DNA from: an uncultured Solirubrobacterales bacterium | Lineage (GTDB): Bacteria; Actinomycetota; Thermoleophilia; Solirubrobacterales; Solirubrobacteraceae | Length of the DNA stretch: 64,000 bases | Assembly: GCA_963703775.1 (NCBI GenBank) | Contig: CAVPFP010000029.1 | Coordinates: 17,105-81,104, forward strand | Direction: 5' to 3' | Shown here: positions 4,450 to 34,109 of the stretch, piece by piece | Layout: the number at the start of each line of letters is the position of its first letter | Numbering within the stretch: position 1 is the first letter of the stretch | Notes under the pieces: model-generated | Seen by the model: the letters and a program-made list of their open reading frames with translations, nothing else | Told to the model about the DNA's origin: nothing | The model's database searches: none | Program-made: the position numbers and the translations under genes

Positions 4450-4462
4450 GCGGGCGCGCAGG

Positions 4463-5386: not shown

Positions 5387-5429
5387 CGGCGAATTATCGT
5401 GAGCCTCGCAGACCGCAACTAAACTCGCG

Positions 5430-5807
5430 GTGATGGGCCGCCGAGCACGAGGCCGTGGTGACAGCGACGAGCCCGTCGCAGCGACCGCCGTCTACAGCGA
5501 CGCTGATGGCAACACGCTCGTCCTGCGAGGATCGCTCAGCCCGAGAACGCGTGCGCGCTACGCGCGCGTTGCAAAGGGCCAGGGCCTGCCGCCTGGTGCG
5601 ACCCGTGAGGACGCCTGGCAGCGCTCCGTCGAGTTCCTCTTCGAGCACCTCGCGGTCAGCTGGTCGATCGCCGACACGCCGGCGCTGACCCGTCAGAGCG
5701 AGCTGCTCGGGCGCCTGCGTTTCGCGAGCCCCCCCGAGCGAGCCTGGGTCAGGGACTGCCTGCGGGCGCACTGCGCCGATCGCTTTCCCGAGCTCGCAGC
5801 CCCCTAA
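5430..5807 (+). CDS. hypothetical protein
   Basis: Track ORF of 125 aa with protein-like composition (..WQRSVEFLFEHLAVSWSIADTPALTRQSELLGRLRF..). No recognised family. Confidence 0.4.
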   Translation: MMGRRARGRGDSDEPVAATAVYSDADGNTLVLRGSLSPRTRARYARVAKGQGLPPGATREDAWQRSVEFLFEHLAVSWSIADTPALTRQSELLGRLRFASPPERAWVRDCLRAHCADRFPELAAP

Positions 5808-5937
5808 CCGCCCGCTCGCTACCCCGCCGGCGCGCGCCACGTAAGCTTTCGGCCTCGGGGCGGCGGTGCGCTGTGAGGTTGCGGGCGGCCCACGCGTCCT
5901 GACAATCATTCGCCCGCCCAACCGAAACCAGCCGCCA

Positions 5938-7344: not shown

Positions 7345-7616
7345 CGCTGCGGTGCCCCTCCTCGGGCTCGGGGTGATGTGGCGAAGGCGTGCTGGTCGGG
7401 GGCTCCTCGCTTGGCTTGTCACGCGAGCGATGTGACGCGGCGTGAGTGCTTGGAGTTGCGTGCGCGGCCGCTTGGTGGGCGGAAGCTGCGCAGCTCCAGG
7501 CTGGGCGCGGCGGACGCCGCGTGACCGTGCGCGGCCGGTACCGGCGGTACGCGGGATGAGCCTGGCGAGGATGACGGCCCCACGCGGACGCTCACATCAC
7601 GCGCATGCAAGGGCCG

Positions 7617-8990: not shown

Positions 8991-8997
8991 CGCGGAG

Positions 8998-9753
8998 CTA
9001 GTCGAGCCGCTGCACGCGGGAGCCGGGGACGATGTCATCGCTGCCGTCAGGCCAGCGGATCCATGCCTTGGTGCCCCCGTCGTAGTCCGGCGCGAGCAGG
9101 ATCAGCGTCGCCGGCTCACCGAGGGCCAGGCACGACTCACCGCCCTCGCCGTCGAGCCCGCGCCAGACCCGGATGAACGGGTTGCGAGCCCACTCGTGGC
9201 CGATCGTTGTCGTGTCGCTGTGGCCAGGTTGGATCACCGTTTCGTGAGGAAGCTCCATCAGGGTGCCCATGATCGAGTCCTTGAGCGCCTGATAGGTCCC
9301 GTGACCAGGAGCGCGGACGCCGCCGACCGATTCGCGAAAGAGCGTGTCACCGGTGAACACCGCGCCGTCCGCGCCGTCTGTGACGAGGAAGGACAACATG
9401 CCCAGCGTGTGCCCGGGCGTGTGGAGCGGGCGGATTCGAAGAGACCCGACGCTCAGCTCCTCCCCGGCTGCGATCGTCCCGGTCGCCCCGGGCACGAGCT
9501 CGCGTTCGAGCTCATGGATCAGCACCGGCGCAGCGGGCCAATGGCGGGTCAGCGAGGCCACGCCGGCGACATGATCACCGTGGTGGTGGGTCAGCAGGAT
9601 CAGGCTTGGCGTGACGCCGCGGCGCGCCGCGGCTTCGACGAGCGGTTCGACCGGCGGGCCAGCGTCGATCACCACCGCAGTGCCACCCGCCTCGTCGAGC
9701 ACGAGATAGCAGTTGGAGCGCAAAGCGGGGTTGGTTGCGCGCTCAACGATCAT
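8998..9753 (-). CDS. MBL-fold metallo-hydrolase (glyoxalase II / hydroxyacylglutathione hydrolase-like)
   Basis: Track ORF of 251 aa with the THHHGDH metal motif, ..HTPGHT.. and ..GDTLF.. Confidence 0.85.
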   Translation of the reverse strand: MIVERATNPALRSNCYLVLDEAGGTAVVIDAGPPVEPLVEAAARRGVTPSLILLTHHHGDHVAGVASLTRHWPAAPVLIHELERELVPGATGTIAAGEELSVGSLRIRPLHTPGHTLGMLSFLVTDGADGAVFTGDTLFRESVGGVRAPGHGTYQALKDSIMGTLMELPHETVIQPGHSDTTTIGHEWARNPFIRVWRGLDGEGGESCLALGEPATLILLAPDYDGGTKAWIRWPDGSDDIVPGSRVQRLD

Positions 9754-9776
9754 CGGACCGCCCTACACTGCGCGAC

Positions 9777-10169
9777 ATGGGCTTCCTCCACACGTGCTAC
9801 AGGATCACAGACATCGATCGATCGGTGGCGTTCTATCGTGCGCTCGGCTTCGAGGAGGTGCGGCGCATGCCGATCCGGGACGAGGCGATCAACGTTTTCA
9901 TGACGATCCCCGGGGACGGAGATGAGCCGCGACTCGAGCTCACCTACAACTTCGGCGTAGACCGCTACGAGCTCGGTAGCGCCTACGGCCACATCGCCAT
10001 TACCGCAGGCGAGCTCGACGACACGCTCGAGCGCCTCGCGGACCTCGGAATCGAGCCGGAGCGCCCGCCCTACCGGGTCAACGAGGGCGGCTCGCGGATC
10101 TGCTTCGTCCGCGACCCGGACGGCTACCGGATCGAGCTCATCGAACGCTCGGGCGACGGCGACGACTGA
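9777..10169 (+). CDS. gloA: lactoylglutathione lyase (glyoxalase I, VOC fold)
   Basis: ATG at 9777 within track ORF 9735..10169: MGFLHTCYRITDIDRSVAFYRALGF..LELTYNFG..YGHIAI..FVRDPDGYRIELIE. It is divergent from the glyoxalase II-like gene. Confidence 0.85.
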   Translation: MGFLHTCYRITDIDRSVAFYRALGFEEVRRMPIRDEAINVFMTIPGDGDEPRLELTYNFGVDRYELGSAYGHIAITAGELDDTLERLADLGIEPERPPYRVNEGGSRICFVRDPDGYRIELIERSGDGDD

Positions 10170-10171
10170 GC

Positions 10172-10411
10172 CTCGTCACCCGGTTCTTCGCCACCCTCGG
10201 CGAGGAGACGAAGATTCACAAGTTCGAGCCGCATGAGCTCATCGCCCAAGGCGACGATGTGGTCGTGTTGATCACCGCTGAGTTCACGGTGAAGCGCACC
10301 GGCCGCAAGGTCAGCGATCACCTGGTGCACGGCTGGACCTTCAAGGGCGGCAAGCTCGCGCATTTCGAGGCCTTCCGGGACACCGCCGCGATCGTCGCCG
10401 CCTACAGCTGA
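10172..10411 (+). pseudogene. 5-prime-truncated SnoaL/NTF2-like gene remnant
   Basis: No start codon. The frame with codons from 10172 and stop TGA 10409-10411 translates to LVTRFFATLGEETKIHKFEPHELIAQGDDVVVLITAEFTVKRTGRKVSDHLVHGWTFKGGKLAHFEAFRDTAAIVAAYS. This resembles the C-terminal two thirds of a SnoaL-like protein. Upstream in that frame there is only Arg-rich nonsense overlapping gloA. Confidence 0.5.
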
Positions 10412-10559
10412 CGTCGCAGGCCAGCCCCGGTCGGCACCGCCTGACCGCCGCCAGGAATTCACACCCGAGTGCCTGCCGCGGTATAGGCTCGCGCTCGGCA
10501 CGACCGTACGGCGCACAGCACCCGCTGTGCAGTCACCCCCAACGGATGAGAGGATCGCG

Positions 10560-10835
10560 ATGGCGACGTCCTATTACTTCACCCCTGAAGGCTTCACGCC
10601 CGCGAAATACGATGAGACGCTCAGGAAGCTCGAGGAGGCCGGCGCCGGAGCACCGAAGGGGCGCACGTATCACGCGGCGCTCGAGAGCGACGGCCACATC
10701 CAGGTCTTTGACATCTGGGAGTCTCAGGCGGACTTCGAAGCGTTCGGCGCGACCCTGGTGCCGATCATGGCCGAGCTCGGTGTCGATCCAGGCACGCCGA
10801 TGACGGCGCCCGTGCACAACGTAATCGAGGGCTGA
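10560..10835 (+). CDS. hypothetical small protein (91 aa)
   Basis: ATG at 10560 preceded by GAGAGGA (RBS-like), within track ORF 10527..10835. Composition is protein-like (..HIQVFDIWESQADFEAFGATLVPIMAELGVDPG..). Confidence 0.5.
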   Translation: MATSYYFTPEGFTPAKYDETLRKLEEAGAGAPKGRTYHAALESDGHIQVFDIWESQADFEAFGATLVPIMAELGVDPGTPMTAPVHNVIEG

Positions 10836-10860
10836 GCGAGACGCCGCCGCTCACGGAGGT

Positions 10861-10923
10861 CGCGCGCTAGCGCTGGCGCGGTCTGACCGCGGTGCCGGAG
10901 GCGCAGATCTCGGTCCAGATCGA
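10861..10923. repeat. 63-nt relic copy of the ybjQ 3-prime end (left copy of a direct repeat bracketing the acetyltransferase gene)
   Basis: Hand alignment with 11494-11556 gives 53/63 identical positions, including an exact 17-mer GCGCAGATCTCGGTCCA. On the minus strand it still reads ..SIWTEICASGTAVRPRQR-stop, versus ..SMWTEICAYGTAVHARPR-stop in ybjQ. Confidence 0.7.
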
Positions 10924-10926
10924 TCG

Positions 10927-11460
10927 CTAGCGGGTGACGCTTGCCGCGTCGGTGCCGGCCGACGCGGAGCCGAGCTCGCGCAGCCGAACTGCCGGGACCC
11001 CGCCGTAGAGCCCGTGCGGGAGCGTGTCGCGCGTGACGACGGCGCCGGCAGCGACGACGCAGCCCTCCGCGACGTTGACTCCCGGCAGGAGCGTCGCGCG
11101 CGCGCCAATCCAGCAGCCGTCGCCGACCGTAACCGGCGCAGTGGCCGGCAATCCCGCCCGTCGCTCGGGGCCGCCGGGGCCGTGAGTCGACGTGCAGAAC
11201 ATCACCTCCATGCCGATGTCGCAGCGGGCGCCGATGCTGATCGGTGAATGCCCCTCGAAGTGGCAGCCCATGTTGATGAACGTGTCCTCGCCGAGCGTGA
11301 CGTCGCGATTGTCCAGGTAGAACCCGCCGCGCAGGACCGTCCCCGGGCCCATCGTGACGCCGTACCAGCGCAACAGCCGGTGGCGTATCGGTGGTGGCAG
11401 GAGGTGATTCGCCGCGATCGTGTTGATCAGCCCGCGCCGCGCGTCTTCGCCAATCGCCAT
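10927..11460 (-). CDS. hexapeptide-repeat (LbH) O-acetyltransferase, maltose/galactoside acetyltransferase-like
   Basis: Track ORF of 177 aa with left-handed beta-helix repeats (..IGARCDIGMEVMF.., ..VGDGCWIGARATLLPGVNVAEGCVVAAGAVV..). Confidence 0.85.
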   Translation of the reverse strand: MAIGEDARRGLINTIAANHLLPPPIRHRLLRWYGVTMGPGTVLRGGFYLDNRDVTLGEDTFINMGCHFEGHSPISIGARCDIGMEVMFCTSTHGPGGPERRAGLPATAPVTVGDGCWIGARATLLPGVNVAEGCVVAAGAVVTRDTLPHGLYGGVPAVRLRELGSASAGTDAASVTR

Positions 11461-11493
11461 GGGACCCAGCAGGCTAACGCGGGGCGAGCTGCA

Positions 11494-11556
11494 CGCGCGC
11501 TAGCGCGGGCGCGCGTGCACGGCGGTGCCGTACGCGCAGATCTCGGTCCACATCGA
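11494..11556. repeat. right copy of the 63-nt direct repeat (functional 3-prime end of ybjQ)
   Basis: See the left copy at 10861-10923; this copy lies inside or just after the ybjQ coding end. Confidence 0.7.
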
Positions 11557-11820
11557 GCCGAGCTCAGCCGTGTCGAAGCGGAAGGCGACGACCGCATTCG
11601 CGCCCTTGGCTTCGGCCTCCTCGACAAGGCGGGCGGTGGCGTCCTGCCGTCCCGCCGCGAGCATCTTCGTCATGCCCTTCAGCTCGCCGCCAATCAGCGA
11701 CTTGAGCCCGGCGCCGATCTGTGCGCCGAGGTTGCGCGAGCGGACGGTAAGCCCGAAGACCTCGCCGAAGACCTCCTCGATCTCGTAGCCCGGCAGGTCG
11801 TTCATCGTCGAGATCAGCAT
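11500..11820 (-). CDS. ybjQ: YbjQ/UPF0145 family protein
   Basis: ATG at 11820 within track ORF 11500..11928: MLISTMNDLPGYEIEEVFGEVFGLTVRSRNLGAQIGAGLKSLIGGELKGMTKML..ANAVVAFRFDT.. is typical of the UPF0145 family. Confidence 0.85.
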   Translation of the reverse strand: MLISTMNDLPGYEIEEVFGEVFGLTVRSRNLGAQIGAGLKSLIGGELKGMTKMLAAGRQDATARLVEEAEAKGANAVVAFRFDTAELGSMWTEICAYGTAVHARPR

Positions 11821-11831
11821 GCGGCGCGATG

Positions 11832-12119
11832 CTACTCCTCGCCGGGATAGGCCGGCACGATCAGTGGCTCCTTGATCTGGATCGCCTGCTCGATCTCTTC
11901 CTCGATGCCGAAGGCCGAGCCGTCGCAATCGATCCGGAAGCGCTTCGGTGCGATCCGGTCGTCAGGCAGCACCGGGACGCCCCACAGCTCCTCCCAGCCG
12001 AACAGCTCGTAGTTGCCGGGATTCAGCAGGATCGCGCGCGGCGCCATCGGACAGGTACTCGCGTGGTGATCGAGACCGCGGCGGATGAAGGCGAGCATCT
12101 CGGCTTCGAGCGAGGCCAT
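11832..12119 (-). CDS. hypothetical protein (95 aa) inside the marR-ABC-ybjQ gene string
   Basis: Track ORF with 10-11 nt gaps to both neighbours on the same strand. Composition is protein-like; no recognised family. Confidence 0.5.
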   Translation of the reverse strand: MASLEAEMLAFIRRGLDHHASTCPMAPRAILLNPGNYELFGWEELWGVPVLPDDRIAPKRFRIDCDGSAFGIEEEIEQAIQIKEPLIVPAYPGEE

Positions 12120-12129: not shown

Positions 12130-14025
12130 TCACTGTAAAGACTCGGCGGGATTGTCGTGCGCGATCAGCGTCGCGTAGTAGCCCCCGCGCCCGATCAGCT
12201 CGTCGTGCGTGCCGACCTCGACGATCCGGCCGTGGTCAAGAACGACGATCTGGTCGGCGTCGCGAACCGTGGAGAGACGGTGAGCGATCGTGATCGTCGT
12301 CCGCCCGACGGCGAGCTCGTCGAGCGCCTCCTGCACCGCGTGCTCGGTCTGGGTGTCGAGCGAGCTCGTCGCCTCGTCGAGGACGAGCACCGGCGGGTTG
12401 CGCAGCACCGTCCGCGCAATCGCCATTCGCTGCTTCTCGCCGCCGGAGAATCGGTAGCCGCGTTCGCCGACGACCGTGTCATAGCCGTCGGGCAACGAGG
12501 CGATGAGGTCGTGGATTCGGGCTGCGGCCGCGGCTGACTCGACCTCCTCGTCGGAGGCGTCGGGCCGCGCGAAGCGTAGGTTCTCGCGCACCGAGGCATG
12601 GAACAGGTAGGTCTCCTGGGAGACGACGCCGATCGTCGCGGCAAGCGAAGCGAGTGTCGCGTCGCGGACGTCGACGCCGTCAATGGTGATCCGTCCCTCC
12701 TGCGGCTCGTAGAGGCGCGCGACGAGGTAGCCGAGCGTCGTCTTGCCGGCTCCGGTCTCGCCGACGATTGCCGTGCGCGTCCCGGCCGGGACGACCAGGT
12801 CGATGTCCGTGAGCGTCCAGTCGGAGTCGGGCGTGTAGCGGAACGCGACGTCCTCGAAGCGCACCTCGCCGAGCAGCTCACCCGGCCGCAGCTCGACGGC
12901 GCCGGGCCGCTCCTGGATGTCCACGGGCAGGTCGAGGTACTCAAAGATCCGGTCGAAGAGCGCCAGCGACGCCTCGACGTCGGTGCCGACCGAGAGCAGC
13001 TGCGCCATCGGGAAGAGCAGGCGCGTCTGGACCGTCGTGAAGGCGACGATCGTGCCGATGCTGATCGCGCCGCTGGTGACGTTCTCGCCCGCCAGCCAGT
13101 AGATGATCGCCGGCTGAATCGAGAAGACCATGTTGATCGTCGACATCAGCCAGCGTCCGGCCATCCGCGAGTGAACCTCGAGCTTGGCGACCTCGTCGGA
13201 CTCGGCGGTGAACCGCTCGGCGAGGTCCCCTCCCCGGCCCATCGTCTTGCCGAGCATCACCCCGGAGACGGACAGCGACTCGGCGACGAGCGCGGAGATA
13301 TCGGCAAGGCCGCCCTGCAGGCGCGATGTGATCGCGCGGCGCTCGCGCCCGACACGCCGTGTCATCCACACGAACAGCGGCATCAGCGCGAACGAGATCA
13401 GCGCCAGCTGCCAGCTCAGGATCGCCATCGCGATCGTGGCCGCGATGACTGTCGTAGCGTTCTGGGCGATCGTCGTCGCCGTGTTCGTCGCGACGTTGTC
13501 GATCCCGCCGATGTCGTTGGCGATCCGTGACTGGACCTCGCCGCCCCGCGTCCTCGTGAAGAACGCCAGCGACATCCGCTGCAGGTGGCGATAGACGGCG
13601 ACGCGCAGGTCGTGCATCACGCGCTGGCCGACCTCCGTCGAGACGTAGGTCTGAACGACGCTCAGCGCCGCCGTGGCGATCGCGATCGCGATCATGCCGC
13701 CGACGAGCTCGCTGAGCAGCGTCGTCTCGTGTTTGAAGATCCCCTTGTCGAGGACGTCGACCAGCAGGAATGGCGAGAGCATGCTGAGGCCCGAGGAGAC
13801 CACGATCAGCGCCAGCACCCAGGCGAGCTTCCAGCGGTAGGGCGCGAAGAGACGCACGATGCGGCGCGTGTCGCGCTCGCGCTCGGGATCCATCAGCGGC
13901 GGCGGCGGCTCGCTCGGCCCGAGCACGCGCTGTCCGCCGCGTGCGCCGCTGCGCGCCCGCGCGTCGCCGTGCATCCCGATGCCATGGCCTGCGCCGCCGG
14001 CGCCTGTCCCGCCCCAGAAGCTCAT
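12130..14025 (-). CDS. ABC exporter, fused permease + ATPase (MsbA/multidrug type)
   Basis: Track ORF of 631 aa: six-helix TMD, then Walker A GETGAGKTT, signature FSGGEKQR, Walker B LVLDEATSSLD and H-loop IAHRL. Confidence 0.9.
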   Translation of the reverse strand: MSFWGGTGAGGAGHGIGMHGDARARSGARGGQRVLGPSEPPPPLMDPERERDTRRIVRLFAPYRWKLAWVLALIVVSSGLSMLSPFLLVDVLDKGIFKHETTLLSELVGGMIAIAIATAALSVVQTYVSTEVGQRVMHDLRVAVYRHLQRMSLAFFTRTRGGEVQSRIANDIGGIDNVATNTATTIAQNATTVIAATIAMAILSWQLALISFALMPLFVWMTRRVGRERRAITSRLQGGLADISALVAESLSVSGVMLGKTMGRGGDLAERFTAESDEVAKLEVHSRMAGRWLMSTINMVFSIQPAIIYWLAGENVTSGAISIGTIVAFTTVQTRLLFPMAQLLSVGTDVEASLALFDRIFEYLDLPVDIQERPGAVELRPGELLGEVRFEDVAFRYTPDSDWTLTDIDLVVPAGTRTAIVGETGAGKTTLGYLVARLYEPQEGRITIDGVDVRDATLASLAATIGVVSQETYLFHASVRENLRFARPDASDEEVESAAAAARIHDLIASLPDGYDTVVGERGYRFSGGEKQRMAIARTVLRNPPVLVLDEATSSLDTQTEHAVQEALDELAVGRTTITIAHRLSTVRDADQIVVLDHGRIVEVGTHDELIGRGGYYATLIAHDNPAESLQ

Positions 14026-24445: not shown

Positions 24446-25138
24446 TCAGCCAGCGACCGCTCGCAGCGAGAGCGCGTCGCGCAGCTGACCGGCGTCAGGC
24501 AGGACAGCGTCGGCAGCCGTCAACTCGGCGGCGGAGTACGGGCCGGTGGCGATGGCGATGACGCGCAGGCCGTCGGCGCGGGCGCAGGCGATGTCCAGCG
24601 GGGTGTCGCCAATCACGGTCGTCAGGGCGCGCGAGTAAGGCGGTCCAGGGGCGCCGGCGCGCTCGCGGGCGATCGGTCCGAGCAGCTCGCGTTGCTCGGC
24701 GTCCGATCCAAAGGCGCCCTGGCCCACGGGAAAGTAGTGGGCGATGCCGGCACGCTCGAGCTTGAGTCGCGCGATCGGCTCGTAGTTGCCGGTCAGTAGC
24801 GACAGCCTGACCGTCCGCTCGCGCGAGAGCGCGTCCAGCACCTCGACAACTCCCGGGGCAACGTGCGAGGCGAGGCTCGCCGGGCAGCATCGTAGGAACG
24901 AACCGGTGCACGCTGCCTGAAACTCCTCGAGCCGGGCGTCGAAGCGCCCCTCGGGTAGGCCGCAGGCGACCGCGAGATCGCGTGCGATCTGCGTATCTGT
25001 CCGCCCCGCCGCGGCGACGGCCTGCGAACCCGGATCGTCGAGCCCGTAGACGCGCGTCAGCGCGTCCAGCAGCGCACGGCGGTGCGGATCGCTGGCGCGC
25101 AGCAGCAAGGTCCCGTCGATGTCGAAAAGCAGGAGCAC
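24446..25138 (-). CDS. HAD-superfamily hydrolase (phosphoglycolate phosphatase-like)
   Basis: Track ORF of 230 aa with motif I LLLFDIDGTLL and the later ..VIGDTPLDI.. motif. Confidence 0.85.
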   Translation of the reverse strand: MLLLFDIDGTLLLRASDPHRRALLDALTRVYGLDDPGSQAVAAAGRTDTQIARDLAVACGLPEGRFDARLEEFQAACTGSFLRCCPASLASHVAPGVVEVLDALSRERTVRLSLLTGNYEPIARLKLERAGIAHYFPVGQGAFGSDAEQRELLGPIARERAGAPGPPYSRALTTVIGDTPLDIACARADGLRVIAIATGPYSAAELTAADAVLPDAGQLRDALSLRAVAG

Positions 25139-25298
25139 AGCGGCATTCTTGCGAGTCGAACATCCGTCAAAGAAGCTCGACGGCTAGCCCTGGACGGACG
25201 ATGACCAACCATAGGCGCGCAGCGATCCGGCCGAAAGGAAGCCGATACCCGACCATACACACCGCTCGGGCTCGCGCGGACTGCGGCGACGCCCCCTC

Positions 25299-27509
25299 TT
25301 GACCTGTGCGCTCTCGGAAGCGGGCGACACGATGATCGAGGTCGTATGCGCGGCGCTGATCGTCGCGCTGGTCGCCGCTGCCGTCTTCACCGGGCTTTCC
25401 GCGGCCGCCCACATCTCGGGCACCCAGCGACATCAGTCGGTGGCGATCGAGCTGGCCCAGCAGGACGAGCAGCGCCTGCGTGGCCTCACGGTCCAGGAGC
25501 TCGTGGCAAGCGCGTCGGGCGGCTGTGCGAGCACGGCGCCGCTCGATGGCAACGGCTGCTACACGCAGACAATCGACAACCAGACCTACACGATCAGCTC
25601 AACTGCGCAGTTCTACTCGGCCTCGAACGGGTCGCAGTCATGCACCACCTCGAGCGTCGGCAGCGCCGACTACATCGCGACGACCTCGAAGATCACCTGG
25701 CAGAACACCACCAGTCAGCCGGTCGAGGAGCACAGCCTGATCACGCCAGCGAGCGGCGGACAGATAGTCGTCGCGGTACAGGACAACGCCCAGTCGCCCA
25801 CGACGGGCCTTTCCGGCGCGACCGTCACGATCACCGGGCCCGGGACGAACACCTCGACGCAGACGCAGACGACCGACAGCTCCGGCTGCGCGCTGTTCGT
25901 CGCCGTCACCGCGGGCAGCTACAGCGTCAGCGCGACGATCCCAGGCCCCTACGTCGCATACGGCGGCACCACGACGCAGTCCGTCCAGCTCGCCAACAAC
26001 CAGACGCAGACGGTCACGTTCAACGCTGCCCGAGCCGCGACGGTCAACGCCAGCTTCCAAACGGCCGTAAACGGGACGGCAAGCGCGATCCCCTTCGATA
26101 CCTTCTCCCTGGCGGCAACTAGCGAGTCCGCGGCGCAGTCGTTCGGCACCGTCGGTAGCTACGCAACGCCGCCGAGCACGGTCAGCTCAGGTGCGGGTCT
26201 GTATCCCTACTCGAGCGGCTACAACGCCTACGCCGGCACGTGCACGTCCGACGACCCGGGCTCGAGCCTCGACACGCCCGTGACCGTCACGGAGGGCGGC
26301 ACGACGCCGGCGACGGTGAACGTGCCGTCGATGCTGCTCGGGCTGACGAGTTCGTTCACGAGCCCGGGCGGAACCACGGAGGTCGACGACAGCAACTCGT
26401 CGGTGACGTTCGCGCAGGGCACCGGGTCGAGCAACGGCTGGACGACGCAGGGCAGCACGCCAGGCGACTACAACAGCGCCGAGCACTACAGCAACGTCGC
26501 CGGCAACGCAGCGAGCTACACGTTCACTGGAACGAGCATCACCTGGGTCACGAAGCTGTACTCGAACCATGGGTACGCCGACGTTTACATCGACGGCACT
26601 GACCTCGCGCACAACATCAACACGTACAGCGCCTCGACCATGTACCAGTACCAGGCCTTCACCTACGTCTGGCCGACGTCAGGCACGCACACGATCAAGG
26701 TCGTCGACGATGGTGGCACACCGCCGGGCTCGAGCGGTAGCTATATCGCGATCGACGCATTCATCGTCGGAACATACACGCCGACGCAGGTTCCGAACAC
26801 GAGCGCGTCAATCGCCTACACCGGCACTTGGGGGTCGTACACGAACAGCTCTGAATACAGCGGCAGCGAACACAACAACGGCGTCGCCGGAAGCACAGCA
26901 AGTCTCACCTTCACCGGCACGAGCGTGGCGTGGATCACATCCGAGTGGCCGGATCACGGCTACGCCGACGTCTACATGGACGGCACTGACGTCGCGCCAA
27001 ATGTCGATACGTACGCAGCGAGTGCGACCTTCCAGGTCGAGGCGTTCGAAGAGAACTGGACAACCTCGGGAACTCACACCATCAAGGTGTACGTCGACGG
27101 GAGACACGACGGCAGCTCCACAGGCAACAACGTCTCGATCGACGAGTTCATCGTCGCCAACGCGCAGTCCTCGTCAACCACGTCTGTCACGAGCTGGCCG
27201 GGCAGCTGGGCGATGAAGACCTACGACTCATGCTCGACGCCGGTCGCACGCCCGCTGCCGAGCAACCCGGTCGCGACCACCGTGAGCAGTCAGACGGTGT
27301 TCCCGGTACCCGCGCCCTACGGCAGCTCACTCCAGGTCTGCATCGCGAACAGCGGCACGAATACGAACACCGGCGCGCTCCCGTCAGGCTCGACGCAGCT
27401 CTCGAACACTGATTTCACCGGCAGGACGATCCAGTCGCTCACGTTGCCCACATCGAGCACGGCCACCGGCAACAGCGCCGTGTTCGCCAACAGCGGGAGC
27501 TGTCCATGA
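25299..27509 (+). CDS. giant pilin-like protein: weak prepilin-type N-terminus + CarboxypepD_reg-like domain + two tandem CBM/lectin-like domains
   Basis: Track ORF of 736 aa with a TTG start. N-terminus ..SEAG/DTMIEVVCAALIVALVAAAVF has Glu at +5 after Gly. Residues ~153-245 are an Ig-like beta-sandwich (GATVTITGPGT..TDSSGCALF..AGSYSVSA). Residues ~363-490 and ~499-619 are a duplicated domain. An alternative ATG at 25332 would remove the leader. Confidence 0.7.
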   Translation: MTCALSEAGDTMIEVVCAALIVALVAAAVFTGLSAAAHISGTQRHQSVAIELAQQDEQRLRGLTVQELVASASGGCASTAPLDGNGCYTQTIDNQTYTISSTAQFYSASNGSQSCTTSSVGSADYIATTSKITWQNTTSQPVEEHSLITPASGGQIVVAVQDNAQSPTTGLSGATVTITGPGTNTSTQTQTTDSSGCALFVAVTAGSYSVSATIPGPYVAYGGTTTQSVQLANNQTQTVTFNAARAATVNASFQTAVNGTASAIPFDTFSLAATSESAAQSFGTVGSYATPPSTVSSGAGLYPYSSGYNAYAGTCTSDDPGSSLDTPVTVTEGGTTPATVNVPSMLLGLTSSFTSPGGTTEVDDSNSSVTFAQGTGSSNGWTTQGSTPGDYNSAEHYSNVAGNAASYTFTGTSITWVTKLYSNHGYADVYIDGTDLAHNINTYSASTMYQYQAFTYVWPTSGTHTIKVVDDGGTPPGSSGSYIAIDAFIVGTYTPTQVPNTSASIAYTGTWGSYTNSSEYSGSEHNNGVAGSTASLTFTGTSVAWITSEWPDHGYADVYMDGTDVAPNVDTYAASATFQVEAFEENWTTSGTHTIKVYVDGRHDGSSTGNNVSIDEFIVANAQSSSTTSVTSWPGSWAMKTYDSCSTPVARPLPSNPVATTVSSQTVFPVPAPYGSSLQVCIANSGTNTNTGALPSGSTQLSNTDFTGRTIQSLTLPTSSTATGNSAVFANSGSCP
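26385..27155 (+). repeat. intragenic tandem duplication of a ~125-aa carbohydrate-binding-like domain
   Basis: Copy 1: HYSNVAGNAASYTFTGTSITWVTKLYSNHGYADVYIDGTDLAHNINTYSASTMYQYQAFTYVWPTSGTHTIKVV..IAIDAFIV. Copy 2: EHNNGVAGSTASLTFTGTSVAWITSEWPDHGYADVYMDGTDVAPNVDTYAASATFQVEAFEENWTTSGTHTIKVY..VSIDEFIV. Confidence 0.75.
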
Positions 27510-28222
27510 GGCGGCGCAAGCAGATGCGCGATGAGCGCGGTTACACGCTGATCGAGATGATCGCGGCGACCGGCGCGGGGTTACTCGTGGCAGCTGCGGC
27601 GATGGCGCTACTCGCCACGAGCTACCACATGCTCTCCAACGGCGCAGACCGCGTCGATGCGAACCAGCAGGGGCGCGCGGCGCTCCTGCAGATCGAACAG
27701 CTTCTGAACTCGAGCTGCGTCGCCGGCGTCGGAGTGTCCCCGATCGTCGGCGTAAGCTCGGGCGGCTCGGGCGCACCCCCGAGCGGCGCGAACTCGATCA
27801 CGTTCTACGCGTCGCAGAGCGACTCACCAACCGCGGAGCCCAACGAATACGTTGTCTACCTCTCTGGCGGCGGAGCGCTCGATCTGGCGACGTATCCGTG
27901 GGTCAGCGGCTCGAATCCGGATTGGGTCTTCGCGACGTCGCCCAGCCCCGTGACCCCGCAAGTGCTGGTCACGCATGCAGCAACCACACCGGGCACCTCC
28001 GCGCTCTTCAGCTATTACAGCTACGCCTCGAGTGGCCAGCTGACATCTGCCGATCCAAGCTCGAGCTCGAGCATCGCTGCGGTCACGATCCAGTTCGAGG
28101 CGCTCGCGACCGACAACAACACGTCGATCGGAAATGGGGTCAACTTCTCGGACCAGGTCGTGCTACGCCTCACGCCAGTGTCCGGCACGCCGCCCACCAG
28201 CACGCCGGAGCCCTGCTCATGA
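27506..28222 (+). CDS. PilW-like minor pilin / pseudopilin with canonical prepilin N-methylation signal
   Basis: Track ORF of 238 aa: MRRRKQMRDERG/YTLIEMIAATGAGLLVAAAAMALL (Gly-1, Glu+5, hydrophobic helix). ATGA overlap with the preceding gene. Confidence 0.75.
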   Translation: MRRRKQMRDERGYTLIEMIAATGAGLLVAAAAMALLATSYHMLSNGADRVDANQQGRAALLQIEQLLNSSCVAGVGVSPIVGVSSGGSGAPPSGANSITFYASQSDSPTAEPNEYVVYLSGGGALDLATYPWVSGSNPDWVFATSPSPVTPQVLVTHAATTPGTSALFSYYSYASSGQLTSADPSSSSSIAAVTIQFEALATDNNTSIGNGVNFSDQVVLRLTPVSGTPPTSTPEPCS

Positions 28223-29901
28223 CGCGCGCCGCCGTAGCCAGGCTGCGAGCGCGCGCCGCCGGCGAGCGTGGCTTCAGCATGGCCGTGGCGGTGATCGTCC
28301 TTCTCGCCTCCGCGATCATCACCTATGCCGCGATGGATGCCGTCGCCGGCGACGTCATACCGGTGCGCAACTCACTAGATCAGAACCGCGCCCTCGACGC
28401 CGCAGATGCCGGTCTCGCGGTGTTCCGCCAGCAGCTCCAGACCAACACCGGCTACTGGAGCACTTGCCCGATCGTGACCAATGCCGTGGTACCGGCATCG
28501 ACCGATGACAACTCGACCGAGCGCTACAGCTACCACATTCTCGCTGCTTCCACGGCCCCGACCACCGACAATCACTGCGATACATCGAACCCGATTGGCA
28601 CGGCCATCGAAGGCAACAGCGTCGGCTCAGGGTCGTTTCGGGTGGAGGTGACCGGCACATCGGGCAACGCGACGCGCTCGATCGTCGCCCAATTCCGTCC
28701 CCCCGCGTTCCTCAACTACGTCTACTTCACCAATTACGAGATGGGCGATCCATCGATCGATGGCGGAAACTGCACTTCGTGGCTCTCGGGCCTCTCGAGT
28801 TACGGCTACTCAACGGCGACCCCGCCCTACTACTGGTCGGTCATCAACGGCTCCACGATCGGGTCGACGCGGGTGTCGAACTGCAGTGACATCGAGTTCA
28901 TCACAGGCGATCACATCAACGGCCCGCTGCACAGCAACGATTACCTGGATATCTGTGGCGCCCCGACGTTCGGACGCTCTGGCGAGACGCCTGCCGACAC
29001 CGCCGAAGCACCCGGCGAGTACTCGGACAACGGCTGTTCGAACAACGCCGTCATCAACACGGCCAACCATACGCTCAACACGAGCGCCGGGACGCTTCCG
29101 CTCCCGTCGACCAACTCGGCGCTCCAGACCGTGGCCAACGGAGGCAATTCGTCGCTGACGAACGGCTGCTCGGCCACGGCAGGATGCGTATTCACTGGGC
29201 CTACGTGGATCACGCTGAGCGGGTCGACGACGCCCTCGACAATAACTGTCACCAACGCCAGCTATAACGGAGGCGTCGCTACGCGCCTGACCTCCGGGTA
29301 TCCAACGAACGGCGTGATCTACGTGCAAAACGGGTCGGGAACCTGCGCCGCTTACGCCAACAGCTCGCCCGACTACCCGACGTCCGGTGATCCATGTGGC
29401 GACGCGACGGTGACCGGCAGCTACACGAGCTCGCTCACGATCGCAAGCGCCAACGACGTGATACTCGCCGGCAGCGTGACCACGACCACGGACAGCAATG
29501 GCCAGCCCACGGGCAACGACTTCCTCGGGCTGATCGCCAACGACTTCGTGCGCATCGCGCACCCGTGCAACAACTCGAACGGCGTCAATGGGTCGAGCGG
29601 CAACTACACATCGCTGAGCAATCCCGAGATCGACGCGGCGATCCTTGCCGTCAACCACTCGTTCATCGTCGACGACTACGGCTGCGGCGCCGCGCTCGGG
29701 ACGCTGAAGGTCGACGGAGCGATCGCACAGGACTTTCGCGGCGTCGTCGGCACCGGTAACGGGGGCGGCGGCGCGTCGACCGGCTACCTGAAGAACTACA
29801 TCTATGACGGCGCGCTCCAGACCGAGTCGCCACCGTTCTTCCTCAACTCATCCGGCAGCTGGCAACTGGTTCGCGAGACCGAGTGCGACACGACGTGTTA
29901 G
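28219..29901 (+). CDS. PilX-like large pilus-tip/assembly protein (560 aa, Thr/Ser/Asn/Gly-rich, Cys-rich)
   Basis: ATG at 28219 (ATGA overlap) within track ORF 27898..29901. N-terminus ..AAGERGFSMAVAVIVLLASAIITYAAMDAV matches the PilX_N pattern (no Glu5). The remainder is beta-rich (..FRVEVTGTSGNATRSIVAQF.., ..INGPLHSNDYLDICGAPTF.., ..AILAVNHSFIVDDYG..). Confidence 0.7.
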   Translation: MTRAAVARLRARAAGERGFSMAVAVIVLLASAIITYAAMDAVAGDVIPVRNSLDQNRALDAADAGLAVFRQQLQTNTGYWSTCPIVTNAVVPASTDDNSTERYSYHILAASTAPTTDNHCDTSNPIGTAIEGNSVGSGSFRVEVTGTSGNATRSIVAQFRPPAFLNYVYFTNYEMGDPSIDGGNCTSWLSGLSSYGYSTATPPYYWSVINGSTIGSTRVSNCSDIEFITGDHINGPLHSNDYLDICGAPTFGRSGETPADTAEAPGEYSDNGCSNNAVINTANHTLNTSAGTLPLPSTNSALQTVANGGNSSLTNGCSATAGCVFTGPTWITLSGSTTPSTITVTNASYNGGVATRLTSGYPTNGVIYVQNGSGTCAAYANSSPDYPTSGDPCGDATVTGSYTSSLTIASANDVILAGSVTTTTDSNGQPTGNDFLGLIANDFVRIAHPCNNSNGVNGSSGNYTSLSNPEIDAAILAVNHSFIVDDYGCGAALGTLKVDGAIAQDFRGVVGTGNGGGGASTGYLKNYIYDGALQTESPPFFLNSSGSWQLVRETECDTTC

Positions 29902-30026
29902 CGCTGCGGGCCCGGCCTCGTCGCGGGAGTGAGACACCTGCGAGTTGGGGCCGGGCTTCTCGCTTTGCTTGCACTGCGCCTGGTGTGGCGCCGCGGAACG
30001 CTTGGTAGCGGGATGGCGCGCCGCTG

Positions 30027-32923
30027 CTAGCTCGCGGCCGCTAGTCCTTCCATCACGCCCTCGAACGCGCTGCGCACGCTCGCGACCGCGCGCGCGAGGG
30101 CGGGACCGAGCCTGTCCAGCATGGCGCCGTCGCCGTCGTTTGCGGCGCACTCGATCTCCGCGAGCACCTCCGCGAGCGCGCTGGCGCCGAGCGTCGCGCT
30201 GCTTGACTTCATCCGGTGCGCGACGCGCGCCGCCGCCGCGTGGTCGGAGGCTTGGACGGCCGTGCGAATCTCGACTGCCTGCGGATCGAGTTGCTCCAGG
30301 AACAGGCGAATGATCCGCGACAGGGCTGCAGCGCCGCCGACGTCCTCCTGCAACGCGGCGAGCATCGAACGGTCGATGGCGAACCCGTCGTCGCGCTGCG
30401 CACCGTTCGCGCGCTCGAGAGCGTCCTCGAGCGAGCCTTCCTCCGCAGGTTGCGCGCTGCGGCCGTTTGCCAGGACGGCGCGCTCTATCGCCTGCGCCAG
30501 CGCCGCGAGCGTGACCGGCTTCGCGACGAAGTCGTCCATACCGGCGTCGCGGCAACGGTCGTAGTCCTCACGCATCGCGTTCGCCGTGACAGCCACGATC
30601 GGCATGCGCGGGCCGCCCGCGGCCTCCCGACCGCGGATCGCGCGCGTGGCGGCATAGCCGTCCATCACCGGCATCTGGCAGTCCATGAGCACAGCGTCGT
30701 AGGTCTCCGCAGCGAGCGCGGCGAGTGCCTCCTCGCCATTCTCGACTGCGTTCACCACGAGTCCGAGGCGGCTCGCCTGCCGTGTCAGCACCTGCTGGTT
30801 GACCGGGTTGTCCTCGGCGATGAGGATCCGCAGGCCGCGCAGATCCGCGACGGCGGGGACATCGTCCGCGACCGGTGGCGCGGGGACAGCCGAGCGACCG
30901 CACCCCGCGAGCGCGTCGTACAGGCGCGACTGCTTGATCGGCTTGGCGATGACGGCATCGAACGGTTCCGCCGCGCGGTCGGCAGGCGCTCGCCGACGTC
31001 GAGCAGCGCGACGACGAACACGCCGTCTTCGCCAGCAAGCTCGTGCAGTTGCGAGGAGAGCCCATCCGAGCTCTCCTCGGCGGAGCTCACCGCGAGAAGC
31101 ACGGCATCGTAAGGCTCGTTCACGAGGGCCGCGCTGAACAGCTTGAGCCCCTCGGCCGCCGAGGAAGCCCGCGTCGTGTGCATCCCCCACGCGCGTAGGT
31201 AGCGGTCGATCGTCTCGGCCGCGCTGGCCGCCGATTCGACGATCAGCACGCGCAGCGGCCGGCTCTGCGGCAGCGGACCATAGGCCGGATCGGCGGCGCG
31301 CTCAGGCACCTCGAACGGGACCGCGAACGAGAACGTCGAGCCGCGACCGATGCCCGAGTCGACCGCCAGCTCGCCACCCAACAGGCGGACGAGACGCGAG
31401 GAGATGGCAAGTCCGAGGCCCGTGCCGCCGTGAGCGCGAGTTGAACTGCCGTCCACCTGCGTGAACGGCTCGAACAGCTTTTCAAGAGCATCGGGAGGGA
31501 TCCCGATCCCGCTGTCGCTGACCGCGAACTGCACTCGCACGCGATTTCCCTCGGCCGGTTGGAGCTCCGCGCGGATCGCGACCTCGCCGGAGTCAGTGAA
31601 CTTGACCGCATTGCCGACGAGATTGACCAGGACCTGCCGCAGCAACCGGGCATCGCCGCGAAGGACCGACGGAGTCCGCGGGTCGACGAAGCAGCCGAGC
31701 GCGAGACCCTTGCGCCGGGCCGGCACGGCGACGATGTCGGTGACGCCCTCGACAAGCGTCGCGAGGTCGAACTCGATCGCTTGGCTGTCGAGCTTGTCGG
31801 CCTCGATCTTCGAGAGGTCGAGGATGTCATCGATTATCGCCAGCAGGTCGTGGCCAGAGGTCCGAGCGATCGTCGCGAGCTCGCGCTGCTCGTCCTCCAG
31901 GTCCGAGTCAAGGATGAGATCGAGGCTGCCGATGACACCGTTCATAGGAGTGCGTATCTCGTGGCTCATCGTTGCCAGAAACTCGGACTTGACGACCGAC
32001 GCGCGCAGTGCCGCGTCGCGCGCGTCGGCGAGCCGTCGTTCCGCCGCGCGCCGCTCCGTTACGTCACGGACGAAGGTGACGAACATTTGCTGACCTGCGG
32101 TTTCAAGCGAATCGATCGTGGCCTCGAGCGGGAACTCGCTGCCGTCGCTGCGCCGGCCGGTACCGGTAAGCCGGCGGCCGCGGAAGTGCTTCGGGTCGCT
32201 GCGCAGGCGGTCGAGGATCTCGACCCAGACCTGGCGGTCACGCCACGGGACGAACGTCTCGAGGTTCTCGCCGACAGCGGCGCGGGTCGTCTTGTAGAGC
32301 CGCTCGGCGGAGCGGTTCAGCTCCACGATCGTGCCGTCGCTGTCGAGCATCAGGATCGCGTCAACGCTCGCTGCCATCACGGCACTCTTCATCTCCTCGC
32401 TGGCCTCGAGCGCCGCGCGCGCTGTCTTCTCCTCGGTGACGTCGCGCAACACCACGCAAACCCCGATCATCTCGCCATCGCCATTGGGGCGAATCGGAGT
32501 AGCGGTCGCCTCGATCCAGCGCGTGCCCCCATCGGGCAGGGCGATCCGGTGCCGGCAACTCTCGCGCTTGCCGCTCCTCAAGGCCACATACGCCGGCAGC
32601 GTGTCGACCCGATGTGGCGTGCCGTCCTCGCGGATCAACCTCGCCGCCGTTTCCTCGGGCGTGAGCCTCAACCGTTCGTCCAGCGGCAATGCCGTTATGT
32701 CGTTGGCGCGCTCGTTGCAGTGGACGACGTTCGAGTCGAGATCGAGAACGAGCACGCCCTCGTCCATGGCTTCGAGCATCGCGGCAGCGAGCTCCACGCT
32801 AACGGCCGACGTGGCCGGCTCGGCGGTCTTCGGAGCCGTGCTGCGCGGGCGCGACGCCCGGCGGGCAGTGCCGCCTTGAGGAGTCCGGCTCGCAGCGCTG
32901 GGCTTGGCGGGAGTCATCGACAC
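30027..32923 (-). pseudogene. hybrid sensor histidine kinase PAS-PAS-HisKA-HATPase-REC(degenerate)-REC-HPt, one frame break
   Basis: Track ORFs 30785..32923 and 30027..31190 join at ..LLDVGERLPTA / AAEPFDAVIAKPIKQSRLYDAL, with the break near 30969-30983. H-box ATMSHEIRTPMNGV; G-boxes DSGIGI and GGTGLGLAIS. The first receiver lacks the acceptor Asp (DAVLLAVSS). The second is canonical (DAVLMDCQMPVMDG). HPt motif AHRMKSSSATLGA. Confidence 0.85.
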
Positions 32924-32991
32924 GACATAAGAACGGCTATCTGGGCGCCGAGGACGACTCGAACATGCGTCCAGGGTGCGGGAATACGAGC

Positions 32992-34109
32992 ATGAGTTCG
33001 CCGCAGCGCCTGCGCATCCTGCTCGTCGAGGACGATGCGATCTTCGCCGCTGTCACCGCCGAGGTGATGCGCGAACGCGCGCTCGTCCGCTGGACACCGA
33101 CGGCGGAAGCGGCCCTCGCCGCCGCGGGCGAGAAGGAATGGGATCTGATCATCACCGACATCGAGCTCCCGGGAATGAGCGGGCTCGAGCTCGTGATGAA
33201 GATCAAGGCGTCGCAGCCGCACGTCGCCACGCTGATCCTGACGGGCCATCGCAGCTTCGACAACGCGGTCGAGGCGATCCGTGTCGGCGCCGACGACTTC
33301 CTCACGAAGCCGGTCGACCGGCGCGACGCTGATCGAGAAGATCGATGAGCTCGCAGCGCTGAGCGCGCGACGCCGCGCCTCGAGTCAGCGCGACGGTCCT
33401 CGCCGTTGGCGCTCACCCCGACGACATCGAGGTCGGCTGTGGCGGCACCCTGCTTTCCCACATCGCGCAGAACCATTCCGTCTCCGCGCTGGTGATCACC
33501 GGCGGCGAGGTGGGCGGAGTCCCCGCCGACCACGCTCGCGAGGCGGCTCGCGCCGCCGAGCTGATGGGAGTCCGCCTATTCCATATCAATGTCGGCGACG
33601 CCAACGTAGGCGATTTGGAGGCGACGACAAACGAAATCCGCCGCGTGCTGGAGGAGCTGACGCCCGACACGCTCTACACCCACAGCATTCACGACTTCAA
33701 CCAGGATCACCGCAGCGTGCACGAGGCCTCGGTCGCCGCGGCCGCGAACGTTCCCCGGGTCTTCTGCTACCAGAGCGCCTCGAGTACCGTCGAGTTCCAG
33801 CCGAGCCGTTTCGTGGCAGTCGATGAGTACATGGACCGCAAGCTCGCCGTCGTCCGTGCCTACAAGTCGAACGTCCGCCAGCGCCGCTATCTCGACGCCG
33901 ATCTGCTCCGCGCGACCAGCCGCTACTGGAGTCGTTACGGACAGACCAGGTTTGTCGAGCCGTTCGAGGTGGTCCGTGAGACGCCGGCCGTCGTCTCGCC
34001 CGAGTGGTCCGACGATGAGGCCGAGATCACGGGCCCAACGTCCTCACCGACTTCCAATGGCGTGGCGTGGGACCAGCGCACGCCGATCGAATCGCCTGTC
34101 AGCGACTGA
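32992..34109 (+). pseudogene. response regulator receiver fused to PIG-L/LmbE-family deacetylase, two frame breaks in the linker
   Basis: REC (LRILLVEDD..DLIITDIELPGMSG..FLTKPVD) runs in track ORF 32965..33348. The linker ATLIEKIDELAALSARRRASSQ is in the frame of ORF 33281... The PIG-L domain TVLAVGAHPDDIEVGCGGTL..NQDHRSVH.. is in the frame of ORF 33492..34109 and has no start codon of its own after the stop at 33360-33362. Breaks lie near 33320 and 33390. Confidence 0.75.

Follow-up and report, generated by a model that had tools for sequence, protein, structure and literature searches.

Three overlapping genes in a stretch of 64,000 nucleotides from an uncultured Solirubrobacterales bacterium (assembly GCA_963703775.1, contig CAVPFP010000029.1, positions 17,105 to 81,104; this whole stretch is called the window below) probably encode the core minor pilins of a type IVa pilus: a PilI/PilV/GspI-like subunit (gene 1), a PilJ/PilW/GspJ-like subunit (gene 2) and a PilK/PilX/GspK-like subunit (gene 3), encoded apart from the pilus machinery at a site that is conserved in one Solirubrobacteraceae lineage. 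We put the probability of this reading at roughly 0.75. The likeliest role for the trio would be that of a tip and priming complex with a lectin-like head, serving a type IVa pilus whose machinery we infer to be encoded elsewhere in the source genome. In window coordinates, the three genes are:

25299-27509, + strand: gene 1, TTG start, 736 amino acids (aa), candidate PilV/GspI-like modular minor pilin
27506-28222, + strand: gene 2, ATG start, 238 aa, candidate PilW/GspJ-like minor pilin
28219-29901, + strand: gene 3, ATG start at 28219, 560 aa, candidate PilX/GspK/ComZ-like capping minor pilin

An earlier note on this DNA had described three coupled genes of these sizes; the coordinates of the open reading frames (ORFs) and the ATGA overlaps, which we checked in the sequence (27506-27509 between genes 1 and 2, 28219-28222 between genes 2 and 3), match that description exactly. 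GGAG-type ribosome-binding sites precede genes 2 and 3, and the TTG of gene 1 lacks one. That TTG, at 25299, is the first canonical start in the open frame, and several gene callers start gene 1 homologues (P0152 among others) at an ATG 11 codons downstream of it. The stretch upstream of this later ATG, (E)(A/T)G/DTMIEV, is nevertheless conserved as protein in every relative compared, and one relative (L088) has an ATG at the -9 position, matching the TTG of the window, while another (L001) has a TTG six codons further upstream. Because the peptide around G/DTMIEV is conserved and L088 carries its ATG at -9, translation of gene 1 is best placed upstream, which upholds the TTG start originally proposed. 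A longer version of gene 3, starting at a GTG at 27898, finds no support among homologues.

The strongest evidence for a pilus role of the trio is its genomic context in related genomes. One genome of each GTDB species was scanned with a gene 3 alignment, and at least 514 relatives emerged; the best 80 of these 514 were returned and 77 loci were kept, nearly all of them labelled as Solirubrobacterales or Solirubrobacteraceae metagenome-assembled genomes (MAGs). The order gene 1-gene 2-gene 3 is preserved in nearly all of 87 loci. At 34 of the 77 loci (context B) the trio lies within 10 kilobases (kb) of pilus machinery, embedded in a complete type IVa pilus cluster with the order pilB-pilT-pilC-major pilin-(trio)-pilD-pilM-pilN-pilO. 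The proteins have the sizes of 585-600 aa (PilB), about 360-377 aa (PilT), about 405 aa (PilC) and 140-195 aa (the major pilin, with the N-terminus ...ESG/FTLVELLVVML...), and Pfam recognises T2SSE with MshEN, T2SSE, T2SSF, N_methyl, Peptidase_A24 with A24_N_bact, PilM_2 and PilN in the two clusters searched (L050 and L058). One context B locus (L086) sits on a complete chromosome. The earlier note had named conventional wall-anchored or secreted homologues as the finding that would speak against pilins; the homologues lie instead between a major pilin gene and pilD, and none of the three window proteins has an LPxTG motif.

The window belongs to a different arrangement (context A), in which genes for a TPR protein, an ABC-F protein and, on the minus strand, a HAD hydrolase precede the trio, and a hybrid kinase-Hpt gene (minus strand), a gene for a response regulator (RR) fused to a PIG-L domain (plus strand) and an aconitase gene follow it. 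This order persists as gene 3 identity falls from 89% to about 40%, and no pilus machinery was found within 10 kb of the context A loci examined. There is also a second conserved orphan site (context C), with tRNA-Trp(CCA) upstream and a divergent tRNA-Leu(TAG)/tRNA-Leu(CAA) pair downstream, an arrangement present at 22 of the 28 loci inspected, which were L008 and 27 GTDB loci. In a neighbour-joining tree of gene 3 proteins the clades follow context, and none of the genomes among the 77 loci kept (from the best 80 of 514 relatives) carries the trio in two contexts. Some relatives (L005/L011 at 3334-11857, L016, L020 and L043) carry two trios in tandem at the context A site: CE2_N-like modules are present in the longer gene 1 of the first copy, the shorter gene 1 of the second has CarboxypepD_reg only, and the window keeps a first-copy-type trio alone. 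Taken together, the distribution indicates either relocation of the trio to conserved sites remote from the machinery or its duplication there. The earlier description of the trio as a stand-alone tip or priming complex is supported, provided that stand-alone is taken to mean a minor-pilin operon set apart from its machinery and not an independent system. A precedent is provided by Myxococcus xanthus, in which several minor-pilin sets, with genes that lie apart from those of the machinery, all work with a single major pilin and a single machine as primers and tips of the pilus (PMC7541494), although those sets have four minor pilins and PilY1 each and are recognised as paralogues in the same genome.

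A metagenome scan based on PilC, made for pilus clusters that lack an embedded trio, gave none that could be tied to the lineage of the window; it gave other lineages with different minor-pilin sets, plus clusters with one small extra pilin. In one related high-GC type IVa cluster (L091, 11532-17209; also L092, L097 and L099), the genes that separate pilD from the major pilin gene encode an 806 aa secreted repeat protein and, after it, pilin-like proteins of 203 aa and 469 aa. In L007 (10001-12370) the homologues of genes 2 and 3 are called as one 789 aa protein with N_methyl and PilX_N, which may be a true fusion or else an artefact of assembly or of a frameshift. At context C loci (L011-L087 and L008; about 6.0-7.6 kb and 11.7-18 kb) the distance between gene 3 and the tRNA-Leu pair varies; in L008 a 177 aa ORF without annotation follows gene 3 (12163-12696), and a DsbA-like thioredoxin gene and a VKOR gene lie 5-6 kb upstream of the trio (1643-2972), which may bear on pilin disulfides.

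Each of the three proteins begins like a prepilin. The N-termini read MTCALSEAG/DTMIEVVCAALIV in gene 1, MRRRKQMRDERG/YTLIEMIAA in gene 2 and ...AAGERG/FSMAVAVIVLL in gene 3, the leaders ending in SEAG/, DERG/ and GERG/, with Glu at +5 in genes 1 and 2 and Val in gene 3. The leader of gene 2 is placed as follows:

27506-27541, + strand: gene 2 leader MRRRKQMRDERG, preceding YTLIEM with Glu at +5

These class III signals were first reported, with Glu+5 in genes 1 and 2 and none in gene 3, from the window alone, and they turn out to be family-wide. Across the homologues of gene 1 at 58 loci, Gly-1, Glu+5 and a hydrophobic alpha-1N are all conserved, the pattern being G/x(T,A,S)(L,M)(I,V)EV with a hydrophobic helix after it; all 29 of the 29 full-length gene 2 relatives listed have ERG/(Y,F,L)TLIE; and members of the gene 3 family have Gly-1 in at least 90% of cases, Phe at +1 and Leu or Val at +5, without Glu+5. 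A missing Glu+5 is a known exception for GspK/PilX-type caps. N_methyl matches at E <= 0.01 in 19 of 24 gene 2 relatives and in 7 of 36 gene 1 relatives, PilX_N matches 10 of 43 aligned gene 3 relatives, and a family profile of gene 2 searched against the PDB matches solely pilin N-termini. JGI names the relatives PilV or PilE (gene 1), PilW (gene 2) and PilX (gene 3). Invariant cysteines number six in gene 1, two in gene 2 and five in gene 3 across aligned relatives, and these conserved residues would fit extracellular, disulfide-bonded proteins. Tad/Flp pseudopilins were considered and rejected: TadE_N has no Pfam match in the trio or in the relatives of genes 1 and 2, the signal of the family is G/(F,Y,D)T(L,M)IE, and the machinery of the relatives is PilB/PilT/PilC/PilM/PilN rather than CpaF/TadB/TadC.

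The order and coupling of the genes agree with a PilIJK/GspIJK trio, as do the J-position protein (238 aa) and the K-position protein (560 aa, no Glu+5, PilX_N in relatives). The I-position protein, which would be expected to be small, is the largest (736 aa) through added modules, its pilin module alone comprising about 150 residues in the AlphaFold2 (AF2) model. The known GspI-GspJ-GspK and PilV-PilW-PilX complexes (PilIJK; PDB 3CI0; PMC13533445) are likewise encoded by three co-transcribed genes in the order I-J-K, with K as the largest subunit; this order is conserved across type IV pili and the type II secretion system (T2SS), and PilK/GspK can supply its own final strand in cis (PMC13533445). 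The trio resembles them further in its K-like subunit, which has no Glu+5, is predicted to supply its own C-terminal strand and belongs to the family with the PilX_N matches. It departs from them in that the I subunit, normally the smallest, is here very large and modular, in that the insert of the K subunit is a beta-solenoid rather than the alpha-domain of GspK, and in that no GspH/FimU-like fourth pilin or PilY1/PilC adhesin is visible.

Gene 1 owes its size to a series of predicted domains:

25299-25325, + strand: leader MTCALSEAG, ending in Gly-1 (Gly-1 and Glu+5 in 58 loci; ATG at -9 in L088)
25326-25742, + strand: pilin module, alpha-1 at residues 10-61 (Asp+1, Glu+5) and beta-sheet at 86-148 (AF2 model)
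25758-26360, + strand: putative immunoglobulin (Ig)/CnaB/prealbumin-like beta-sandwiches, residues ~154-354 (weak Pfam matches, Foldseek)
26373-26771, + strand: jelly-roll module 1, resembling carbohydrate-binding modules (CBMs), residues ~359-491 (Pfam CE2_N, Foldseek)
26781-27158, + strand: CBM-like jelly-roll module 2, residues ~495-620 (a duplicate of module 1)
27171-27452, + strand: predicted C-terminal beta domain, residues ~625-718, with conserved Cys645, Cys681 and Cys735 (AF2 model, alignment)

The AF2 model (predicted local distance difference test score, pLDDT, 84.4; predicted template-modelling score, pTM, 0.58) opens with a helix of 54 residues (8-61) followed by strands at 86-148. 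CE2_N matches in two stretches with 29.1 bits against a cut-off of 27.9, and Pfam matches to SdrD_B, SpaA and Ig_DR_A0283 are sub-threshold. Foldseek pairs the sandwich domains with GBS52, SpaA, PitA and SdrD, and the jelly rolls with 3nqh, the xylan-binding module 7ehg (TMt 0.70), the CBM35-bearing 4qaw, the CE2 esterase 2waa and the CBM32-bearing 5xnr. The two jelly rolls align to each other with a local score of 320 and about 50% identity, indicating an internal duplication. In relatives the head differs among lineages and protein length ranges from 436 to 870 aa: 24 of 36 carry CarboxypepD_reg (PF13620) and 20 of 36 carry CE2_N, and short orthologues (436-500 aa) have no CBM-like jelly rolls. 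Modules of the same CE2_N-like type also occur in NlpC/P60, SpoIID, cell-wall-binding and beta-helix proteins of Actinobacteria. By these matches gene 1 encodes a modular type IV pilin, an N-terminal pilin module joined to domains that are not specific to pilus biology, and its CBM-like jelly rolls most likely bind a polysaccharide.

Modular pilins are widespread, and the combination of a pilin with PF13620 is among the frequent architectures (PMC8179133). Among the closest known systems is the PilA-PilB-PilC set of Streptococcus sanguinis, which belongs to a Gram-positive-type type IV pilus, carries bulky modules (lectin, vWA) grafted on pilin modules, and is modelled as a tip complex of three minor pilins (PMC9934059, PMC8179133) that binds glycans (PMC9934059). 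There is no detectable sequence relationship, however; the modules of S. sanguinis are a concanavalin-like lectin and a vWA domain, whereas those of the trio are Ig/CnaB-like domains and two CE2_N/CBM-like jelly rolls, and the S. sanguinis genes lie within the pil locus. Glycan binding was shown experimentally for S. sanguinis, whereas for the trio it is deduced from fold.

Gene 3 combines a pilin-like module with a large insert:

28219-28272, + strand: leader of 18 residues ending in Gly, no Glu+5 following
28273-28698, + strand: pilin-like module, alpha-1 at residues 21-75 and four strands up to residue 160 (AF2 secondary structure)
28711-29802, + strand: predicted beta-solenoid insert, residues ~165-528 (AF2 model)
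29863-29886, + strand: predicted final beta-strand, residues 549-556, after the solenoid (secondary-structure order)

In the AF2 model, built from a 43-sequence alignment (pLDDT 83.9, pTM 0.81), two helices (21-43 and 47-75) are accompanied by a beta-rich stretch of about 360 residues. Like the model of gene 1, it shows the lollipop fold of type IV pilins, with an alpha-1 helix of some 50 residues packed on a beta-sheet. The only significant Foldseek matches of this model in the PDB are the three chains of ComZ (6qvi; E 1e-9 to 4e-8, probability 1.00). ComZ is also the sole PDB match of the gene 3 family profile, at a marginal E of 0.044, with profile positions 47-166 aligned to ComZ 7-129, that is, to the pilin module. 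ComZ of Thermus thermophilus is a GspK-like pilin with a beta-solenoid inserted before its last strand; it has been argued to be a tip pilin, and it binds DNA (PMC6561018). Gene 3, at 560 aa, is close in size to the crystallised ComZ chain (534 aa), shares the GspK-like pilin module, the large beta-solenoid before the last strand and the lack of Glu+5, and likewise follows smaller minor-pilin genes in its operon. The setting differs from that of ComZ in that the host is a high-GC actinobacterium, the trio lies away from the major pilin gene and the partner gene 1 carries CBM-like modules. The ComZ-like topology was read from the secondary-structure string alone, and its final strand (549-556) would accordingly return to the pilin sheet. 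The initial description of gene 3 as PilX-like is thus borne out twice, by PilX_N in its relatives and by a GspK-like protein as its only significant fold match, and the structural searches proposed at the time led to ComZ for gene 3 and to CBM and CnaB/Ig folds for gene 1. The family is large: a word-indexed search gave more than 700 relatives of gene 3, mostly in Solirubrobacteraceae MAGs, and a profile search gave 4,289 representatives at 50% clustering (E <= 0.001).

If the trio is indeed a tip and priming complex, the class III signal would insert each protein in the membrane, and a PilD-type prepilin peptidase, encoded elsewhere, would cleave after the conserved Gly. The three alpha-1 helices would then come together as a trimer to start polymerisation of the major pilin, and this trimer would travel outward at the tip of the pilus. 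Gene 3, lacking Glu+5 like GspK and PilX and bearing a ComZ-like beta-solenoid too bulky for the body of the fibre, would cap it, and gene 1 would present its Ig-like spacers and two CBM-like jelly rolls to a polysaccharide.

The ratio of nonsynonymous to synonymous substitution rates (dN/dS) against the 89% identical relative L001 is 0.17, 0.17 and 0.13 for genes 1, 2 and 3; against L088 it is 0.41, 0.17 and 0.18, with 0.12 for the neighbouring ABC-F gene, to which the L001 values are similar. These values indicate that the trio genes are intact, functional and under purifying selection. Gene 1 evolves fastest, as expected because its head is exposed. Total GC content falls locally to 0.64-0.65 over the trio, while GC at third codon positions (GC3) is 0.83-0.87 across the three frames, the same as in neighbouring genes. 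The proteins consist of Thr, Ser, Asn and Gly to 36-44% and contain 10, 2 and 14 Cys (genes 1, 2 and 3), much as their description as rich in these residues had implied. Because GC3 is normal, we attribute the dip to Thr/Ser/Asn/Gly-rich coding rather than foreign origin; a foreign island, which the dip had brought to mind, is ruled out by normal GC3 and by synteny kept to about 40% identity.

Upstream of the operon the picture is less distinct. Scans of 24900-30300 for sigma-70 promoters and intrinsic terminators gave nothing useful, and the window offers only a weak candidate:

25230-25248, + strand: weak candidate -10 region, GCCGAAAG at 25230 and GCCGATAC at 25241, no matching -35

At the aligned position two relatives (L089 and L090) have CTCAAG-N15-ACCGATAG. 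A motif of this kind, CT(C/A)A-N16-18-G(C/T)CGA(T/C/A)(A/G)A, occurs immediately before gene 1 in 20 of 52 distinct relatives where about 0.15 would be expected, an enrichment that is overstated in that the pattern was defined after some sequences had been viewed and the sequences are related. In Solirubrobacterales the same sigma-28/WhiG-like motif (CTCAA or CTAAAG, about 16 nucleotides, GCCGAyrA) is found before major pilin genes and a pilM as well, and a regulon common to detached trios and pilus clusters is thereby suggested. Sites before gene 1 homologues or these pilus genes include L002 7709-7737, L013 7622-7650, L020 7122-7150, L032 around 18608 (minus strand) and L076 7286-7314, among others. 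Rubrobacteria, which are sister to Thermoleophilia at class level and likewise branch early among the actinobacteria, transcribe their type IV pilus genes from WhiG (sigma-28-type) promoters with -35 TAAA and -10 GCCGATAA (PMC8325347). The motif before Solirubrobacterales gene 1 homologues and major pilin genes resembles that WhiG consensus (PMC8325347), although its -35 is mostly CTCAA rather than TAAA. In the closest relatives of the window the motif is degenerate, being recognisable there solely in L089 and L090. For the window operon itself such a promoter is not clearly present, given this degeneracy and the lack of a match in the window.

A number of observations weigh against the trio being core minor pilins at a pilus tip. 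The 64 kb window contains no pilB, pilT, pilC, pilD, pilM, pilN or pilO, no major pilin gene and no secretin gene; the search covered Pfam on 30 window genes, synteny-derived annotation of the rest, and a six-frame motif search, in which class III signals turned up solely in the three trio genes and the T2SSE Walker A nowhere. In this respect the window is as the earlier note had described it. No GspH/FimU-like fourth minor pilin and no PilY1 was seen. The Asp at +1 of gene 1 is unusual for prepilins. Pfam N_methyl (PF07963) scores 19.3 bits for gene 2 and 10.1 for gene 1, both below the cut-off of 21.2; TIGR02532 reaches 13.8 against 16.3; NCBIfam gives only sub-threshold matches for the trio proteins; gene 3 has no match in Pfam or NCBIfam; and PDB sequence searches with the three proteins gave nothing meaningful. 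The hmmscan check for N_methyl and PilX_N suggested at the outset thus succeeded for the relatives and failed for the window proteins, and because the window's own N_methyl scores are sub-threshold, the pilin call rests on family-level evidence. The global TM-score between gene 3 and ComZ is low (0.22-0.27), the exact sigma-28-like pattern has no match in the window, and the case for glycan binding by gene 1 comes entirely from fold similarity.

With these points in mind, could the trio be something else? Given that ComZ is the only structural and profile match of gene 3, one might take the trio for the tip DNA receptor of a competence pilus, with gene 3 binding extracellular DNA together with a partner minor pilin as has been proposed for ComZ and PilA2 (PMC6561018). 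The pilus clusters of relatives do include pilT, and their pili are therefore expected to be retractile. However, DNA binding by ComZ maps to two Lys residues (PMC6561018), whereas genes 1 and 3 are strongly acidic (D30 E18 against K5 R7 in gene 1; D31 E13 against K2 R18, a net charge of about -24, in gene 3), and the two Lys of gene 3 would offer little for such binding. Moreover, the likeness to ComZ amounts to about 10% identity and is confined to fold, the modules of the gene 1 partner are CBM-like and not DNA-binding, and no comEA, comEC or dprA was seen near any trio, no systematic search having been made. We consider a DNA receptor improbable. Rather different is the idea that trios with Asp+1 have been repurposed and are independent of the machinery, no longer polymerised and forming a membrane-anchored or cell-surface lectin complex, or else using another peptidase. 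Asp+1 is invariant in context A gene 1, while inside pilus clusters the +1 residue is Phe, Met, Ile, Leu or Tyr; no context A locus has machinery within 10 kb; and the sigma-28-like promoter is degenerate in the closest relatives. Yet Gly-1, Glu+5 and alpha-1N are invariant over 40-89% identity at a dN/dS of about 0.15, a degree of conservation that would be difficult to account for in the absence of prepilin processing and helix packing, and more distant context A loci retain the sigma-28-like promoter found before major pilin genes. Repurposing therefore strikes us as quite improbable.

The organisation and order of the trio, similar to GspI/J/K, and a weak NCBIfam match of gene 2 to XpsI would also be compatible with the pseudopilus tip of a T2SS-like secretion machine rather than an adhesive pilus. 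But the XpsI match scores 16 bits against a cut-off of 150, no secretin was found in the window, and the clusters of relatives, with pilT, pilM, pilN, pilO and a major pilin of 140-195 aa, have type IVa organisation. The source organism, which as a member of the Actinomycetota we assume to be probably monoderm, counts against a T2SS too, and we hold this explanation to be very improbable. Least credible of all is that these are ordinary Sec-secreted or sortase-anchored wall proteins whose N-termini merely look like those of prepilins. Their Ig/CnaB-like domains do resemble sortase pilins and MSCRAMMs, and N_methyl is sub-threshold in the window proteins; but LPx[TSA]G is absent from all three proteins, whose C-termini (...NSGSCP, ...TPEPCS and ...ECDTTC) show no anchor, the G/xxxxE motif is conserved family-wide, the alpha-1 helices exceed 50 residues in the models of genes 1 and 3, and the homologues are embedded between a major pilin gene and pilD. 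A set of core minor pilins for a type IVa pilus thus remains the reading we prefer.

Apart from the trio, the window holds housekeeping and signalling genes alone. The flanks of the operon are, as the earlier note had them, a HAD hydrolase gene and a hybrid kinase gene:

24446-25138, - strand: HAD hydrolase, 5' flank of the trio
30027-32923, - strand: hybrid kinase, 3' flank of the trio

The hybrid histidine kinase is split into a 712 aa ORF (30785-32923) and an overlapping 387 aa ORF (30027-31190) on the minus strand, and its relatives are single proteins of 948-978 aa with PAS, HisKA, HATPase_c, Response_reg and Hpt. Because these are unbroken, a frameshift is likely within 30785-31190. It may reflect an indel error in long reads, given that the close relative L001 is broken at this place too. 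Beyond it, a receiver domain (32965-33348) and a PIG-L/LmbE-like deacetylase (33492-34109) lie on the plus strand in different frames; all relatives carry one RR-PIG-L fusion of 351-380 aa, an unusual output for a response regulator, which points to another frameshift near 33345-33365. We discarded a functional link between the trio and the hybrid kinase or RR-PIG-L gene, their conserved adjacency being uninformative where the surrounding housekeeping synteny is equally conserved. Farther away, a 1178 aa ORF at 49766-53302 (minus strand) has Radical_SAM (residues 811-979) as its sole match and patchy third-position GC, and probably represents several genes or frames, or a frameshifted gene, rather than one protein. 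A gene with a methyl-accepting chemotaxis protein signalling domain (54088-55788, minus strand) is divergent from one for an Ig-domain/BNR-repeat protein (55933-57066, plus strand); besides the kinases, these are the only other sensory- or surface-looking genes in the window.

Solirubrobacterales are a common and almost uncultured group of soil bacteria, and in the literature we searched we found no paper on type IV pili of Thermoleophilia or Solirubrobacterales, which are essentially undescribed. The order has canonical Gram-positive-type type IVa pilus clusters, and their core minor pilins would be a three-gene set with a cap like that of Thermus ComZ and a first subunit that acts as the module carrier, which gives an annotation to a large family (the 4,289 representatives) with almost no Pfam coverage. 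One may go further and speculate, although we regard this as unlikely, that Asp+1 trios at the ABC-F/HAD-kinase site are a functionally distinct class of tip: an exchangeable, lectin-headed cap that the abundant, uncultured soil Solirubrobacteraceae load onto a type IVa pilus and that uses tandem CBM-like modules to grip a specific polysaccharide of plants, fungi or bacterial walls, with an acidic N-terminus that alters processing or seating, and that ComZ-like solenoid caps are a widespread tip family not for DNA uptake. If true, ComZ-like beta-solenoid caps (more than 4,000 clusters at 50% identity) would constitute an unrecognised family of pilus tips. The trio extends what is known of PilIJK tips, modular pilins and multiple minor-pilin sets and overturns none of it, and it suggests testable ideas on how soil actinobacteria may attach to polysaccharides.

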